DNA from: a virus
Virus record (IMG/VR): IMGVR_UViG_3300032046_000005
Span: 32,001 to 96,000 of that record
DNA length: 64,000 bases
Strand: one strand, 5' to 3'
Position numbers and translations under genes: made by a program. This document shows positions 6,788 through 59,041 of the stretch, piece after piece (positions within the stretch are counted from its first letter, which is position 1; every line of letters begins with the position of its first letter). Below the pieces are notes generated by a model. It saw nothing but the letters and a program-made list of their open reading frames with translations. It was not told the DNA's origin and made no database searches.

Positions 6788-7187
6788 TATGGAAGATTTA
6801 AGATTTTACATTATAGTAAGAACTGATGTTGCATTTAGTATTGGAAAACTACTAGTTCACGTAGGACATTTATGCAGTAAATTAGCAAGTGATTTTTTGT
6901 TTGAATTAGAAAAAGACGATGAAACATATTTGGATCTTCTCAAACGATATACAACATGGTATGGAAATGGAACAACTCAAACCAAGATTGTTTTGAAAGA
7001 ATATGGACTTGAAGATGTAATGTATTACTACGAAAAAGCAAAGCAAAAGAAATTTCCTGCATATTGCATAGAAGATGCTGGATTCTACGAAGTTGAAAAA
7101 GGAACAGTTTTAATGGTTGGAATTGGTCCCATTTCGAAAGAAGAAGCAAAAGAAATTGGATTAGATACGTTGAAACTTTACAAATAA
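6780..7187 (+). CDS. pth2: peptidyl-tRNA hydrolase, archaeal/eukaryotic PTH2 type
   Basis: IIVRTD..SIGKL..HVGH, QTKIVLK, IEDAG.YEV..GT..VGIGP, C-terminal LKLY. Confidence 0.9.
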   Translation: MYNMEDLRFYIIVRTDVAFSIGKLLVHVGHLCSKLASDFLFELEKDDETYLDLLKRYTTWYGNGTTQTKIVLKEYGLEDVMYYYEKAKQKKFPAYCIEDAGFYEVEKGTVLMVGIGPISKEEAKEIGLDTLKLYK

Positions 7188-7987: not shown

Positions 7988-8270
7988 TTTTTTGAACGAT
8001 GTTTTTGGTAATACGAGTGAAAATGGACGAAATAAACAAAAAATTGAGAAAACAAAACAACAATATAAAAAACAAGTATCAAAATCAATAAGAATATCAG
8101 AAAGCGATTGCAACGATCTTATTATAGCATTAAATTACGCTATTAATTCGATTAAAAATAAAGATGATGTTAAGAAATGTGTTATAAATTCAACAAGATA
8201 TGAATTTTTTCTCCGATGGACAAAGATTCGAGAAAAATTTAAAAAAATAAAAGAAAATAAAAAAAATTAA
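7965..8270 (+). CDS. hypothetical protein
   Basis: Last ORF of + strand operon, converges on late genes. Confidence 0.5.
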   Translation: MINMSLDNFLNDVFGNTSENGRNKQKIEKTKQQYKKQVSKSIRISESDCNDLIIALNYAINSIKNKDDVKKCVINSTRYEFFLRWTKIREKFKKIKENKKN

Positions 8271-10670: not shown

Positions 10671-13600
10671 TCATTTTAACTCGAATATCAATCCGTTTGA
10701 TGCTATTATCATGCATTGTTCCGATTTGGCTTCTATCTTTATTCTATCGATGGTAAAAGTGTCTTCTGTTATGGACACATCTGTCGTGGTAAACTTGAAT
10801 GTGAACACTTGTCCAGGTTGTATGAAACCAAGATCTCCTATTTCTGGTTGACAGTCGATCGTGGTTATGGCAGTCGTTCGAGCAATGATGGCATCTGCTT
10901 TTGCATTACATAATGCTGTAGTATTAAGTGTTGCATCTCTTACAATCAATAGAATGACTCCATTCTTTTGTTGGTCTTCTAAGTTAATACCATGTTCTGT
11001 TTCTGATTCAATTCCTATTGATCCTCGAACAATAACTTGATTTACTTCAGAACTTAAGAAATAACCATTAGCATCTTCAATAGGATCAAAGTAAGTAGTA
11101 CCATCATATTGTATCGCTACTAATGTATCCAATTCACCATTGTTATAATACAATTCTCCAGTAGGAGTCAAATACCAAGTAAATGTATCAATATCTTTGA
11201 AATTATCAATTAAAGTTCTCCAAGTCTTGTCTCCTGCTAATGTAAGTGTTCCCATTGCTGTTCCTGCTGTTAAAGTTCCCATCGAAATGTAAGCAATACC
11301 GTTCAAATCGTTGTTCATGTCAGTAATGATCTCGTCAGTCCTTCCTGCTTTCGAACCAGAAGGTTTGACTTGATCCATCTCTTTTGCTGGACTTTCTAAC
11401 CTTACCACTCTTAATGTTCTCGCATCATAAGCTTTTACCAAGCCTTCGAAACACACTTGATCAGGCGTTCCTTTTGCCACATGAAGGTTGTCACCTTCCA
11501 CATAATCGTTATCCCAGATCTCTGCAGGAGCGGAAAGGTATGTAGAATTTGCTACATTTTCTTGACAATCTATTCTTACTTTACTTATATTTGCAACTAC
11601 AGTTCTAAATTCTCCTCCTGTAACTCGTATTGTTTCATTGATATATAAATCAAAAGTATCTGTGGTACAATTGAACGCTACTTTAAAATGATCTAAATTT
11701 CCATCAGTTGGAACTACTCCTACAATTTCTATGGCTGCATTAACAAGATTATAATAATAATATTTATCATTGTCTATTTGTAATAATATTGCCATTGTTC
11801 CAACAGAATCGTAAAAAATGATATTTGTCATATCTGAAGCATCTTCATTTCCCCAATAGAATTCATAGGTTTCTACAGTTTGAACTACTGCAAAATTATG
11901 TACAACATAAGGATCACTTGCTCCTCCATCGTGTGTAACTTTCAATACATTTTTCATGTTATCATATTCATCTACAAGTTCACAACTACAAGTATTAGGC
12001 AAATTAATATCATCAATCCAATCTATGTCTCCAGCAATTGTTATAACTTTAGGCGTTTCGTCGTTAAAGGAGTCTGGAGAGTGCTTATAATACATGGCGT
12101 TTCCGTTTGCTGTATAATATCCAATGAGTTGCATTAACATGTTCTTCGCCACATTAATGTAGTTGCTCCTAAGCAACACCTCAGCAACAGGATAATCCTC
12201 TTTTGGATGGTCAACCCACCACTCCACGATGTAAGGCATCATGTCTTGATACTTGTAAAGCGTTCCAGCGTCTGTTATTAAATAAGTATCCGATATGGCA
12301 ATAATCACATCGTCAAAATCTTGCACGGAAATTAACCATAAATTACCTCTCGATTTTGAGATTTGATATACTTTGTCTTCGGTTAAAGAAAAACCTTTTT
12401 CTGTATTAAATCCTATATCATTTGAGGTATCACAATTACGATCTAGCATTAAAATAATATCATACTCTCCTTTCTTAGTGAATGTGTCACCTCCAATTGA
12501 ATAGGTGCAATAATAATAATCGGGATCATAAAAGAGCGTAAAAGATATAACATCTGAATTGTCGTATGTGATCGTTCTCTTATCGATTGTTGCCGGTAAT
12601 TCAGTTCCTGCACCGCAATCGCAAACTTCTATGATAGTTCCACCAGTATTGTTATAGCACCAGATTTCAACGTTCTCGTCTGACCATGCCCATAAAAAAT
12701 ATGTTTCAGTTGCGGATTTTACCATCATTTGGCTTGCATCGTAAGTTCTCCCAGCTGGAGAGCCCATGTCGTTCGAATGTTTGGCAGAAGTAGTGAGATT
12801 TTCTACATTCAAGAAATATTGTTCGTTCCCGTAAAATCTCACGGTATTGTAAACGCATCCAACTTTGATCTTGGGATAATAATGACATATTACATACATT
12901 TCTTCAAATGTTATAGTTCCTCCCCCAGTAACAGTGGGAGATGTATATTTTATCTGCAAACCATCAAGTTGTGCTTGAGTTATTGAAAGACCAGTCCAAT
13001 GTTGATGTGTCCAACCGGTTGAACTACCAAATTCAAACGTTTTCGTTCCTAACCAAGCTCCTGCATATACATTGACTTGGGCATCGTTATTAGAACATTT
13101 GTTTTTGCCATTAATCCATACTTCAATTTCACTAACATTGGTATTGGTTGGAAGCGTGATTGTATTCATATCAAGTATTTCTACTTCATTTGCAGTAGCC
13201 GTATATATAAATTTATTTGTTGGAAAATCGCCAGTTTCTGCAAGACACGACCAATGTGTGGTTGTATCAGGTGATTCGTCCCAAGTAATTGAAGAATCAC
13301 CATTAGGATGGAAATGTGAAGGAGTAACTTCAGTTCCTTTATTGAATTCTAAATTAACCTGAAAAGTGTCTAAATCTGAATCTATTAACGATAAACCCGA
13401 CCAAGTTACAGTATGCCATGCAGCAGTAGCGGTGGGAGTTATCGTTTTTGATGCAGTTGTTCCAGTTGCAGACCCTGTGACATGAATAGTGCCACCTGTA
13501 GAAGTGTCTGCTTTACAATATATATTTGTAGTTATTTCGTAGATTTCTCCAGAATCGTAAGCAGATAAATCGATTTCAGTAAAGTTAAAATTATCGTCTG

Positions 13601-14141
13601 CACCATCAGTTTGGGTATAAATCTCTTCGGTAAAAGAAGGTGCGGCAGGTGCGTCGTCAACTTCAGTATAATGATTAGCTCCAGTAGATGTCCATTCTGT
13701 CGTTACATCGGGAGCTTCTGGAGTCATTGTTGTTTCTTCTAATGTATATCCCCCCGCCTCAAAGTAATTAACGAACATCGTAGTTCCTATTTTAAAAATG
13801 TCGAACACATCACAATCAGCAAAAGATTTCACTTCTGTTATTGAATCGTCGCTTATTAAGAGAGACCAACAAAAACTCGTCCCGCCGTCGTAGTTACAAT
13901 CTATAAAATAGATTTTATCGTTTGTCCGGTCAAACCAACATCTTGCTATATTCTTAGTTCGTGTGATTATTAACGATTCAGTATCGGTCGAGACTATAAA
14001 TTTATATAATTTCGTTTGATCTATAGAATCCACATAGTATAAAGTATCAGAATCAACTTCTATGAATAAATGAGTATTTTCTGGAAGATGGGATAATGTT
14101 AGACCAGTTGATTGATAATTATAATACTTGTAACTTGTCGT
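10671..14141 (-). CDS. large baseplate hub/Tal-like protein with adhesin (propeller/LamG-like) domains; probable start ACG at 14141 (track start GTG 14033)
   Basis: C-terminal FEGLV..WYLTPTGELYY..VNQVIVRG..IQPGQVFTF is hub-like; T/D/G-rich beta domains; frame is open 36 codons upstream to an ACG preceded by GAGGCGA. Confidence 0.65.
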   Translation of the reverse strand, partial: TTSYKYYNYQSTGLTLSHLPENTHLFIEVDSDTLYYVDSIDQTKLYKFIVSTDTESLIITRTKNIARCWFDRTNDKIYFIDCNYDGGTSFCWSLLISDDSITEVKSFADCDVFDIFKIGTTMFVNYFEAGGYTLEETTMTPEAPDVTTEWTSTGANHYTEVDDAPAAPSFTEEIYTQTDGADDNFNFTEIDLSAYDSGEIYEITTNIYCKADTSTGGTIHVTGSATGTTASKTITPTATAAWHTVTWSGLSLIDSDLDTFQVNLEFNKGTEVTPSHFHPNGDSSITWDESPDTTTHWSCLAETGDFPTNKFIYTATANEVEILDMNTITLPTNTNVSEIEVWINGKNKCSNNDAQVNVYAGAWLGTKTFEFGSSTGWTHQHWTGLSITQAQLDGLQIKYTSPTVTGGGTITFEEMYVICHYYPKIKVGCVYNTVRFYGNEQYFLNVENLTTSAKHSNDMGSPAGRTYDASQMMVKSATETYFLWAWSDENVEIWCYNNTGGTIIEVCDCGAGTELPATIDKRTITYDNSDVISFTLFYDPDYYYCTYSIGGDTFTKKGEYDIILMLDRNCDTSNDIGFNTEKGFSLTEDKVYQISKSRGNLWLISVQDFDDVIIAISDTYLITDAGTLYKYQDMMPYIVEWWVDHPKEDYPVAEVLLRSNYINVAKNMLMQLIGYYTANGNAMYYKHSPDSFNDETPKVITIAGDIDWIDDINLPNTCSCELVDEYDNMKNVLKVTHDGGASDPYVVHNFAVVQTVETYEFYWGNEDASDMTNIIFYDSVGTMAILLQIDNDKYYYYNLVNAAIEIVGVVPTDGNLDHFKVAFNCTTDTFDLYINETIRVTGGEFRTVVANISKVRIDCQENVANSTYLSAPAEIWDNDYVEGDNLHVAKGTPDQVCFEGLVKAYDARTLRVVRLESPAKEMDQVKPSGSKAGRTDEIITDMNNDLNGIAYISMGTLTAGTAMGTLTLAGDKTWRTLIDNFKDIDTFTWYLTPTGELYYNNGELDTLVAIQYDGTTYFDPIEDANGYFLSSEVNQVIVRGSIGIESETEHGINLEDQQKNGVILLIVRDATLNTTALCNAKADAIIARTTAITTIDCQPEIGDLGFIQPGQVFTFKFTTTDVSITEDTFTIDRIKIEAKSEQCMIIASNGLIFELK

Positions 14142-14634
14142 TAAATCGCCTCGATATTATCTTATACAATCCAACCGTAAAAATGCTCATCATGACTATA
14201 AATAAGAAAATTATTATAGAATAAAACAATTGATAATTTGGATGTAAAAACGATAACATAAACTGTGTACCATCTCCTTTTTCGCTTCCAAACATTAAAT
14301 AGAATAAATTATAAATAATCGAAATAAAGGTTCCTATAAAAAAATCGTAGTTTTTTATAACATAAGAAAGTACCATCATGAATAATCCAATAAAACTAAC
14401 AAATAATACACCACTTATATCTATAAATCGCATATCGTTAGGTGAAATAGAACCAACTTTTTCCCAATAAGTATAAAATGCAGTTAGAGTAAATTCGAAA
14501 TGAAGAAATATATTTTTTGTCATAATAATTGCAATTATGTGTCCTATTTCGTGAATAAAACAATATACAAAAAATAATATAATACAAATAAAATTGATTC
14601 TTACTATTCTTAATATTTTCCTAATTTTGTTCAT
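14119..14634 (-). CDS. M50B-like membrane metallopeptidase
   Basis: TM helices with HEIGH and downstream GDG. Confidence 0.7.
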   Translation of the reverse strand: MNKIRKILRIVRINFICIILFFVYCFIHEIGHIIAIIMTKNIFLHFEFTLTAFYTYWEKVGSISPNDMRFIDISGVLFVSFIGLFMMVLSYVIKNYDFFIGTFISIIYNLFYLMFGSEKGDGTQFMLSFLHPNYQLFYSIIIFLFIVMMSIFTVGLYKIISRRFNDKLQVL

Positions 14635-14806
14635 TTTTTTCTTTTTCCTCCGCGCTTTTCAGTCCCAATTCCTGCTCTATTTCTGCTTTTATAGCGTTCC
14701 TTGCGATCTCGCTCAAGTTTACCTCTGGATTTAACCTTCTTAATACTTTTATGTCTTCGTAATCCAATGTCAACGCTATTTTTTTATAATTGCGACCACT
14801 TTTCAT
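14621..14806 (-). CDS. RHH/antitoxin-like small regulator
   Basis: KIALTLD...VNLSEIARNAI; own TATA at about 14828-14847. Confidence 0.6.
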   Translation of the reverse strand: MKSGRNYKKIALTLDYEDIKVLRRLNPEVNLSEIARNAIKAEIEQELGLKSAEEKEKNEQN

Positions 14807-14854
14807 TATACTATTAATATATTGGTAGGTATTTATGTTTATCGTTTTAAGAAG

Positions 14855-15290: not shown

Positions 15291-16253
15291 TTATCTCAAT
15301 CTCTTGAATCGATATTCGTTTCTTTGCATTTCAGCCATTTCTTCTAATAACGCGTTGTTTTGTTCTAATAACCGCAATTGTTGCGATCCTCCGCCTAATT
15401 CTTCGTTTGCTCTTTTATCGTTAAGAGGAATAACTTTTTCTGGTCCAGCTTCTCCTAACATTGCTAATGTGGGTCCTGTTACTAATCCTCCCTTTTGTAA
15501 ATAAGCAAATGTAGGCAATGCTTTTCCTCCAAATGCAGTAATTAGAGTATTCAATGCAGAAATGAATCCGTTAATTATCCATAATATTCCGTTGATTATT
15601 CCTTTGATTGCAACCCAAACCGTGTTAAATACGGTTATTAATCCATTTTTAATCATTATAATAACTCCCCACCAAAAATCCATGCTTAATAATAATCCTA
15701 CAATCATATCAGTTACTTTATTAATTATCGGACTCATTTTATCGAGAGTTTTTATCAACGGATCTAATAAAGGCATTAATGGTATTAATACAGCTCCTAA
15801 AATCTTGAATAATACGGTTAAAGGTATTAATGCAATTTGCATTATCATTCCAACAATTTGTCCTACCAATTGAAATATAGGACTCAATGCAATGAACAAA
15901 TCCATGATTGGTTTCAAAGCCATCATCAAATATGGTAATATAGCTGCTCCCATTATTTCAAACCATGATTTCATGATGTCCCAAATAGCCATCAATGGTT
16001 CTAATGCTATGAGAAGTCCTGAAAAGAGATCTAATAACATTCCCATCGGAGTTATCGACAATCCCATTCCTCCGAGCATTTTGGTTATCCCCTCGGTTCC
16101 TTTTTTTGTTTTTTTATCGCCAAGTTCATCTAAAGTATCATCTAGGGGTGTGAGAGCGTCTGCTAACTTGCCTACTGCAACCGTGATTTCTTCTATTTTT
16201 TCTGCTAAAAAGAAAACTCTTTCGTCTTCAGGACTTATGGTTTCTCCCATCAT
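15291..16253 (-). CDS. short tape measure protein (320 aa)
   Basis: Amphipathic repeats (ALKPIMDLF, LSPIFQLV) and canonical C-terminal LQKGGLVTGPTLAMLGEAGPEKVIPL. Confidence 0.85.
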   Translation of the reverse strand: MMGETISPEDERVFFLAEKIEEITVAVGKLADALTPLDDTLDELGDKKTKKGTEGITKMLGGMGLSITPMGMLLDLFSGLLIALEPLMAIWDIMKSWFEIMGAAILPYLMMALKPIMDLFIALSPIFQLVGQIVGMIMQIALIPLTVLFKILGAVLIPLMPLLDPLIKTLDKMSPIINKVTDMIVGLLLSMDFWWGVIIMIKNGLITVFNTVWVAIKGIINGILWIINGFISALNTLITAFGGKALPTFAYLQKGGLVTGPTLAMLGEAGPEKVIPLNDKRANEELGGGSQQLRLLEQNNALLEEMAEMQRNEYRFKRLR

Positions 16254-47183: not shown

Positions 47184-47332
47184 GCAGAGGTGGTAGAGTG
47201 GACGAATACGCCAGACTTAAGATGTATATATCGGTTATGGGCGACACTAAGGACGAAACTCAAGTCCACCTTTAGTATCGTGAGAAATCTGGTACACAGG
47301 ACACATCGCAGGTTCAAATCCTGCCCTCTGCA
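47184..47332 (+). tRNA. trnL: tRNA-Leu(TAA) with 65-nt intron at canonical position 37/38 (47222..47286)
   Basis: Acceptor GCAGAGG/CCTCTGC, anticodon stem CCAGA/TCTGG, T-arm GCAGG TTCAAAT CCTGC, long variable region, discriminator A, no CCA; BHB central helix CTTA/TGAG with AGA and AAA bulges. Confidence 0.9.
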
Positions 47333-47342
47333 TGTTAATATT

Positions 47343-47490
47343 GGTAGAGTGTCAGAATGGTTAATGGGCTCGACTGGAAGTTTCGAATCGAAATTCTGAG
47401 AGAATCGAATTTCCGAGAACGCTATTCCCGAGAGTTGAAATCGAGTTGTCCCTTAAATGTGGATTGGAGGTTCAAGTCCTCCCTCTACCG
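47343..47490 (+). tRNA. trnS: tRNA-Ser(TGA) with 60-nt intron at non-canonical position 32/33 (47375..47434)
   Basis: Acceptor GGTAGAG/CTCTACC, stem CTCGA/TCGAG, T-arm GGAGG TTCAAGT CCTCC, long variable arm, discriminator G; helix CTCG/CGAG, inner helix GGAA/TTCC; spliced loop CT-TGA-AA. Confidence 0.85.
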
Positions 47491-58255: not shown

Positions 58256-59041
58256 TTAATTTTTAACAAACAAAATCGCATTGGGATAATGAATCATCAA
58301 TCTTCCAGACCACACGAAAAGAAAATCAACCGTTTTTTGAAGGTTATGCGTGATTGGTTCAAATACAAACGAATAACCTTCATACAATTCAAATGTTTTG
58401 AATTTATGTTCATCCTTACCAATTGAAGTTGAAATCAAACAATATCCTTTTTCATGTTTATAATTTTCGAAATTAGGACTTGTAAAAACTGTTTTTATGT
58501 CTTCTGAAAGTTGTGGTATAAGAATATCAGGACTTACAAGCAAAACAAAAGGTAAATCATATCCATCGCCTTTCATTGTTTCTATTGATTCATTCAAATC
58601 AATTCTATAAAATCCGCCGTTAAATAAGCCATAGAATTCTCTACATTTCCATTCTCTCATTTTTTCAATCGTTTCTACTGGATCTAACATATCATCTCCC
58701 CAAGCAATGAATTGTTCGATTTGATCTTGCATTACCTTAACTACTTTCTTAAATTGTTCTTCATACAATTTATTATAATTATCCTTATATTCGTCAATCT
58801 TTTCAAATGAAATTTCAACTTTAGTAGCAAGATATAACATTGGAACAGTTGATTCACATCCAACATCTATCAATCCAGAATCTTTTTTCCAATCAAAATA
58901 TGTTAACTTATCAATTCCTTCTCCAAGTTGTTTAATCAATCCATTCTTTCTCAAGAAGCTGTAAAGATTGTCTTGATTTTCTATTTGTTCTTTCGTTCTT
59001 TCTTGTATTTTTTTTGATATTTCTTGTATTTTTTCTTCCGT
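58256..59041 (-). CDS. second, internally deleted major capsid protein paralogue; probable start ACG at 59041 (track start TTG 58954)
   Basis: GEGIDKLTYFDWKK identical to MCP; LYLA.KV.IS, QF.AWGD.M..PV, FNGG, TSPNF, EL..GY.F, WSGRL shared. Confidence 0.85.
   Translation of the reverse strand, partial: TEEKIQEISKKIQERTKEQIENQDNLYSFLRKNGLIKQLGEGIDKLTYFDWKKDSGLIDVGCESTVPMLYLATKVEISFEKIDEYKDNYNKLYEEQFKKVVKVMQDQIEQFIAWGDDMLDPVETIEKMREWKCREFYGLFNGGFYRIDLNESIETMKGDGYDLPFVLLVSPDILIPQLSEDIKTVFTSPNFENYKHEKGYCLISTSIGKDEHKFKTFELYEGYSFVFEPITHNLQKTVDFLFVWSGRLMIHYPNAILFVKN

Follow-up and report, generated by a model that had tools for sequence, protein, structure and literature searches.

Probable translation initiation at an ACG codon in the tail-hub gene of a putative archaeal virus

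Here, we examine the start of a predicted tail-hub gene on the minus strand of IMG/VR virus record IMGVR_UViG_3300032046_000005, a linear genome of 115,632 bp that is approximately 71% complete and has a GC content of 29%. The window, i.e., the whole stretch of 64,000 nucleotides that was analyzed, comprises bases 32001-96000 of this record; positions refer to the window unless they are given as genome positions. Gene callers picked GTG 14033-14031 as the hub start, which yields a protein of 1120 aa. An earlier note on this DNA had pointed out that the frame stays open for 36 codons above this GTG, to an ACG at 14141, and both coordinates and distance were verified in the sequence. Counted from TAA 14159-14157, the in-frame stop above the hub gene, the GTG is codon 42 and the ACG (14141-14139) codon 6, and there is no ATG, GTG, or TTG among the 41 codons between the TAA and GTG 14033. 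On the minus strand, the TAA is followed by TAT CGA GGC GAT TTA ACG ACA AGT TAC AAG. The ACG, which differs from AUG by a single mismatch at the middle position, is preceded at a spacing of 3 nt by the Shine-Dalgarno (SD)-like sequence GAGGCGAT (14145-14152). An upstream open reading frame (ORF) of 171 aa on the same strand (14119-14634), hydrophobic and with a HEIGH motif, ends at TAA 14121-14119, after an overlap of 23 nt with the proposed hub start, whose frame is +1 relative to this ORF. We propose, at a probability of roughly 0.7, that translation of the tail hub starts at ACG 14141-14139 and not at GTG 14033. This start is favoured because of the N-termini of homologues, the structure model, the ribosome-binding site, and the recurrence of such sites in the genome. 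The revised coding sequence would span 10671-14141 and encode 1156 aa plus stop.

The 35 codons from the ACG to the called GTG (14034-14138) encode a segment that is conserved by homology and structure modelling. A word-index search returned one relative, P0004, whose residues 2-256 align with residues 10-269 of the window's protein at 43% identity and cover most of the extension (in the query numbering used for the N-terminal comparison, ACG is residue 6). When the first 140 residues were compared by phmmer to 1.84 billion representatives, 95 proteins matched, one of them the window's own. The earlier note had asked whether the extension is conserved and begins with ATG elsewhere, or whether homologues start at the MDSIDQ-equivalent position. 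Upon local re-alignment, 77 of the 94 homologues have their first residue at query positions 2-11 and thus near the ACG, with modes at residues 9 (n=30) and 6 (n=17), and related loci mostly carry ATG there; 12 homologues have a longer N-terminal extension, and only two, P0023 and P0046, are called from the GTG-equivalent. These two may themselves conceal other non-canonical starts. The N-termini themselves are alike, as in P0031 (MTNYKYYNY), P0047 (MTSFNYYNY), P0090 (MGNYKYYNY), and P0078 (MTSSEYYNV) next to (ACG)TSYKYYNY of the window. Five residues are nearly invariant across the multiple alignment; two of them, P20 and L25, fall within the extension, and GTG 14033 itself encodes the nearly invariant V37 of a (Y/F/L/M)VDS motif, which makes it an internal valine codon.

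Eight related DNA loci, of which seven come from JGI metagenomes and the eighth from a contig of a GTDB metagenome-assembled genome (MAG), show which codon encodes the first methionine of the family. It is ATG in five distinct loci (L001, L002, L004, L006/L007, and L008) and TTG, 4 nt behind GGAGG, in L005. L003 (780-860) lacks a canonical start in frame; the ATG behind its GGTGAT is out of register by one base (ATG TTA A/GTC CAA), which could reflect a frameshift, an indel from assembly, or yet another non-canonical start. In roughly one of eight homologues (P0011, P0013, P0025, P0036, P0043, P0045, P0060, P0064, P0069, P0081; loci L006/L007), the N-terminus is extended in frame by 17-47 aa. 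Many of these extended forms are signal-anchor-like, with MKK or MRK ahead of a hydrophobic helix, and in several the family start coincides with an internal methionine; they may be alternative long forms or products of gene-caller over-extension in A+T-rich DNA. Scans of IMG/VR with the hub protein or with an alignment found no relatives, the GenBank phage collection gave no match, and the ESM Atlas no usable one.

As judged from structure models, the protein is a tail hub with an N-terminal propeller. The first 135 aa (13737-14141, minus strand) were modelled by AlphaFold2 as beta-propeller blades with a mean pLDDT of 92.4, and the Foldseek partners of this model are propellers of the kelch, YWTD, and TolB type. 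Within it, the pLDDT of the extension is 82-96. Strand 26-28 and the first half of strand 33-38 belong to the extension, and the GTG valine (V37) lies in the middle of the latter strand. A start at the GTG would therefore cut into a conserved domain. The C-terminal 282 residues (10674-11519, minus strand) were assigned to a gp27/Tal-type tail-hub domain by Foldseek on a model that was built with 18 homologues and has a mean pLDDT of only 60; it has 49 PDB matches at E≤1e-3, of which those listed are tail or baseplate hub or spike proteins. The top match is to the tail of Haloferax tailed virus 1 (HFTV1; 9h4p_BD, 6.7e-9), and further ones are to Mu gp44, T5 pb3, lambda J, and VgrG. The window's gene shares with Mu gp44, T5 pb3, lambda gpJ, and the HFTV1 hub (9h4p) the fold of its C-terminal 282 aa as well as a tail-module position downstream of the tape measure: tape-measure PHROGs match the ORF at 15291-16253 (6e-10), which is located on the same strand three genes upstream of the hub gene. 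Siphovirus Tal proteins usually have an N-terminal hub domain, whereas here it is C-terminal and preceded by the beta-propeller and other modules. Pfam and PHROG searches returned nothing for the hub protein. The minimal architecture of the family, at approximately 620-660 aa, is propeller plus hub; the window's protein additionally has an internal duplication, as residues ~136-270 and 274-400 both align to P0004 125-256. Known hubs are trimers, and the view of the earlier note that this is a low-copy virion protein is reasonable for that reason, now that a tail-hub domain is matched in the C-terminal model. By analogy, the protein would be required in few copies, about three per virion.

Sites of the GGTGAT, GATGAT, or AGTGA type, complementary to the 16S rRNA 3' end, precede many ATG starts of this genome, and GAGGCGAT differs by one mismatch from the usual GGTGAT-type site. 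With a generic 16S rRNA 3' end, the 16 nt ahead of the ACG form a duplex of -8.6 to -9.5 kcal/mol, as compared to a median of -3.7 kcal/mol for 105 ATG starts and -1.5 kcal/mol for random sites; this duplex is stronger than those of approximately 97% of the ATG starts of the genome. GTG 14033, at -2.3 kcal/mol, resembles the random sites, in line with the statement of the earlier note that the GTG is without such a ribosome-binding site. The note had also likened the context of the ACG to that of the ATG at 769, and GAGATGATTTAA-ATG is indeed present at 757-771. Genes are tightly packed in this genome. Among its 32 ORFs of at least 300 codons, the hub ORF is an outlier in that its first canonical start lies 41 codons past the upstream stop, whereas this distance is 0-18 codons in the 31 others; an open run of 41 codons is by itself only mildly unusual given the GC content of 29%. 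In an RNA fold of the start region, SD and ACG lie in a hairpin loop, which is not significant (z = -1.7).

The overlap with the upstream ORF leaves room for a canonical start. A change of C14140 to T would convert AAC (14142-14140) of the upstream ORF into AAT, which is synonymous and even the preferred asparagine codon of the genome (AAT 68.5% versus AAC 31.5%). An ACG is thus not imposed by the overlap, as the earlier note had argued. GAGGCGAT is encoded by AGG-CGA in the upstream gene; among the arginine codons of the genome, AGA accounts for 56%, CGA for 22.6%, and AGG for 7.4%. The M50 label that the note gave to the upstream gene did not stand, because no Pfam family matches even at E≤1 and the label derives only from the HEIGH (HExxH) motif. 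There is also no PHROG match to this ORF and no tblastn counterpart in the eight related hub loci. It is a membrane-protein-like gene within the tail module.

Similar sites recur elsewhere in the genome. An unbiased scan looked in frame, at most 12 codons from an upstream stop, for positions that combine a strong SD with 60 or more open codons downstream and that lack a canonical start within 10 codons; six loci were returned. Four of them have an ACG at SD spacing, i.e., genome positions 6999(+), 7996(+), 46845(-), and the focal 46141(-); the other two are an ORF at genome 6507 with a good SD and ATG further downstream and a site within an 867-codon gene, in antisense orientation. Only 0.66% of codons are ACG, and with the focal site left out, an ACG in the SD window of three of the four remaining loci corresponds to P ~7e-5. 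A further candidate, at genome 91041(-), was found outside the scan via a paralogue of MCP. This paralogue (58256-59041, minus strand; ACG 59041-59039) has AGATGAT 5 nt upstream and an upstream TAA 2 nt before the ACG, and the 31 codons before its first TTG hold a stretch akin to the MCP N-terminus (ISKKIQE versus LSKTIEK), so that it probably starts at ACG as well. The candidate at genome 46845 is an ORF of 74 aa inside the tail module (14621-14845, minus strand; ACG 14845-14843), with GGGTGA, a 9-nt spacing, and the ACG just past the upstream stop. An ATG without SD at 14806, 13 codons downstream, is a possible alternative start, and sub-threshold Pfam hints (CcdA/DUF6290) are all that points to what is possibly a ribbon-helix-helix protein. 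The two plus-strand ORFs at genome 6999 and 7996 (L012:1499 and L012:2496) lie in the early region outside the window and have GGTGAT or GGAGGATTGAT and then ACG. From residue 2 onward, the 7996 ORF can be aligned with the residues after the ATG of a paralogue at genome 6018; the 6999 ORF has a TTG without SD 13 codons downstream of its ACG. Each of the five sites lies inside an operon and abuts or overlaps the stop codon of the upstream gene. At 6999, 46845, and 91041, this stop lies 2-9 nt before the ACG; only initiation or reinitiation therefore fits there, and fusion by frameshift is impossible. The case for an ACG start is strong at the focal hub gene, moderate at 7996 and 91041, which are each backed by a paralogue alignment, and weak at 6999 and 46845.

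Alternative explanations for the long open frame have to be weighed against initiation at the ACG. It appears exceedingly improbable that the gene call is right and that the frame above GTG 14033 is an untranslated spacer. The GTG is a canonical archaeal start, the first in the hub frame, and P0023 and P0046 are also called from its equivalent. However, the 36 codons above it are conserved in more than 90 homologues and form part of the modelled propeller, the GTG itself is the codon of a nearly invariant valine in the VDS motif and has no SD before it, and a start there would leave a gap of 85 nt, which is unusual in a tightly packed genome. A leaderless transcript beginning at the GTG was considered separately and rejected; TATA-like A-T-rich strings are everywhere in this genome, and a bacterial-type promoter scan performed no better than shuffles. 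The true codon could also be ATG, with the C at 14140 arising from an error in sequencing or assembly or from mutation in a minority genome that is defective. This we consider unlikely, even though ACG is one transition from ATG and relatives carry ATG at this position: errors do not favour start codons, four further SD+ACG sites exist in the same genome, and the lethal loss of a start in the tail hub is improbable for a consensus genome. Furthermore, the same protein with the same 1120-aa GTG call is recorded from a second assembly, a Logan/ENA contig of 116,359 nt that possibly derives from the same reads. A start within the extension at another near-cognate codon, such as AAG at codon 10 (14129-14127), is very unlikely. 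AAG is one base from AUG, and the 30 homologues with residue 1 at query position 9 begin just before it, but it is 15 nt from the SD and ACG is the only codon common to all recurrent SD sites. AAG is also among the poorest near-cognate starts in the bacterial and eukaryotic systems that have been tested.

Two further mechanisms would make the ACG something other than a start codon as such. A programmed +1 frameshift of the prfB kind, with an SD-like stimulator, could join the upstream membrane ORF to the hub frame within 14156-14122. The geometry is suggestive: 38 nt are open in both frames, that of the hub being +1 to that of the upstream ORF, the SD-like element lies 3 nt ahead of the candidate shift site, which is the arrangement in prfB, and about 12 of the 94 homologues have an in-frame N-terminal extension, many with a signal-anchor-like helix. 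Nevertheless, we rate such a shift as highly improbable. The site is neither slippery nor hungry, as CGA TTT AAC would need re-pairing of tRNA-Phe on UUA and the A-site codon is common, and the overlap TCG AGG CGA TTT AAC GAC AAG TTA CAA GTA TTA TAA holds no CUU-U-like re-pairing site followed by a stop or rare codon. Of the 94 homologues, 77 begin with methionine at the position of the hub ACG, related loci have no counterpart of the upstream ORF beside the hub gene, and at three other ACG sites there is no overlap, so that a frameshift is impossible there. The remaining mechanism, C-to-U editing of the mRNA that makes ACG into AUG, is established in plant chloroplasts and mitochondria. An A before the ACG at five of five sites and after it at four of five could be a recognition context, but A-rich flanks are the rule at the ATG starts of this genome, too. 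A cytidine deaminase (PF00383) was not found in the 115.6-kb record, which is approximately 71% complete, and archaea are not known to edit mRNA from C to U; editing seems exceedingly improbable here as well.

Several observations weigh against an ACG start at the hub gene or against ACG as a recurrent start. The ACG at the hub gene is peculiar to this genome, and relatives use ATG or TTG. The comparison of SD strengths is partly circular, because four of the ACG sites were found by requiring a strong SD, and for two of the five candidates (6999 and 46845) SD and position are the sole evidence. A related 49-kb contig, G001:C299, shows no SD+ACG pattern. ACG is not accepted as an archaeal start, with only AUG, GUG, and UUG listed in a review (PMC4705826), and a ribosome profiling study of Haloferax set aside the approximately 30% near-cognate codons among its putative alternative initiation sites (PMC7261190). 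Our literature searches, which were not exhaustive, found no ACG start described for archaea or their viruses. The contig G001:C299 has a different peculiarity, a 298-codon ORF at ~31007 (-) (L010) in which GGTGA is followed by AAC GAG ATT ATC and no canonical start for 21 codons; it may start at ATT or ATC. The contig is binned in a MAG of the PVC-group bacteria but looks viral and is probably mis-binned.

With the same confidence as the ACG start itself, SD-directed near-cognate initiation at the ACG by the host initiator tRNA is our best reading of the locus. The hub mRNA would be part of a polycistronic tail-module transcript, on which pairing of GAGGCGAT with the 16S rRNA 3' end would place the small ribosomal subunit; ribosomes ending on the overlapping upstream gene may also deliver the subunit to the ACG. 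The host initiator Met-tRNA would then read the ACG with one middle-position mismatch, giving a product that begins Met-Thr-Ser-Tyr-Lys-Tyr-Tyr-Asn-Tyr. ACG is presumably weaker than AUG, for which the strong SD would compensate in part, and the net output would suit a protein of about three copies per virion. A virus-encoded decoder was considered and rejected: the 115.6-kb record (~71% complete) holds no tRNA with a CGU anticodon, no SUI1/aIF1 homologue, and no cytidine deaminase. Its only two tRNA genes, for Leu(UAA) (47184-47332) and Ser(GGA) (47343-47490), are adjacent on the plus strand, and each bears an intron of 60-65 nt after position 37. Such long introns at this position are consistent with an archaeal host. 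ARAGORN in its default bacterial mode misses both genes.

Low hub output as the selected purpose of the ACG, as proposed in the earlier note, is plausible by analogy. Dosage tuning would, however, not be specific to the hub gene, as the four other candidate ACG genes, i.e., the MCP paralogue, the possible ribbon-helix-helix protein, and two small early-region proteins, are not low-copy virion parts. The SDs at all ACG sites are unusually strong and would offset the weak codon. Because of these strong SDs and the ACG genes that are not low-copy, the habit looks like a property of the host initiation machinery that is tolerated or used by the virus rather than a device made for one gene. It is an even bet that ACG is a regular, selected start in this virus-host system, i.e., a fourth archaeal start used by at least three and up to five genes, each behind an above-average SD, via relaxed discrimination by aIF1/aIF2.

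ACG starts are familiar from eukaryotes and their viruses, e.g., in the capsid protein VP2 of AAV and in C' of Sendai virus, where the initiator Met-tRNA reads ACG weakly. In AAV, the ACG keeps VP2, a minor capsid protein, at low stoichiometry, and a tail hub of three copies would be a parallel case. Eukaryotic ACG starts, however, depend on scanning 40S subunits and Kozak context, whereas the hub gene has a Shine-Dalgarno sequence within a putative archaeal-virus operon and no AUG isoform. In Escherichia coli, infC (IF3) has a weak, regulatory AUU start that is autoregulated by IF3, itself the start-discriminating factor; archaea use aIF1. The infC and hub genes are alike in having a rare near-cognate start where output is limited, but no autoregulatory loop is evident at the hub gene. 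Editing in plant organelles likewise involves a genomic ACG at the first methionine of a family but needs deaminases of the PPR/DYW type, and no deaminase was found in the approximately 71% complete record. A parallel in mechanism is offered by the GUG and UUG starts of bacteria and archaea (NCBI table 11; PMC4705826), which are also SD-directed, one base off AUG, and read as methionine; non-AUG initiation has been reviewed (PMC3542737, PMC4705826). GUG and UUG mismatch AUG at the first position, whereas ACG does so at the middle position and is not in table 11, and gene finders ignore it for that reason.

If the ACG start holds true, public gene calls remove 36 conserved residues from this tail hub, including part of the first propeller blade, and similar truncations or missed genes are to be expected wherever the ACG habit occurs. 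Proteins of such archaeal lineages and their viruses would be systematically truncated by gene finders and NCBI table 11, and pipelines that annotate archaeal viruses should include a test for SD+ACG starts. As an instance of a start codon chosen to match virion stoichiometry, the hub gene would be both simple and testable. It would further imply that the archaeal initiation apparatus, with its homologues of eIF1, eIF1A, and eIF2, tolerates a mismatch at the middle position as long as the mRNA is held by a strong SD, which would bear on the evolution of start-codon stringency between archaea and eukaryotes.

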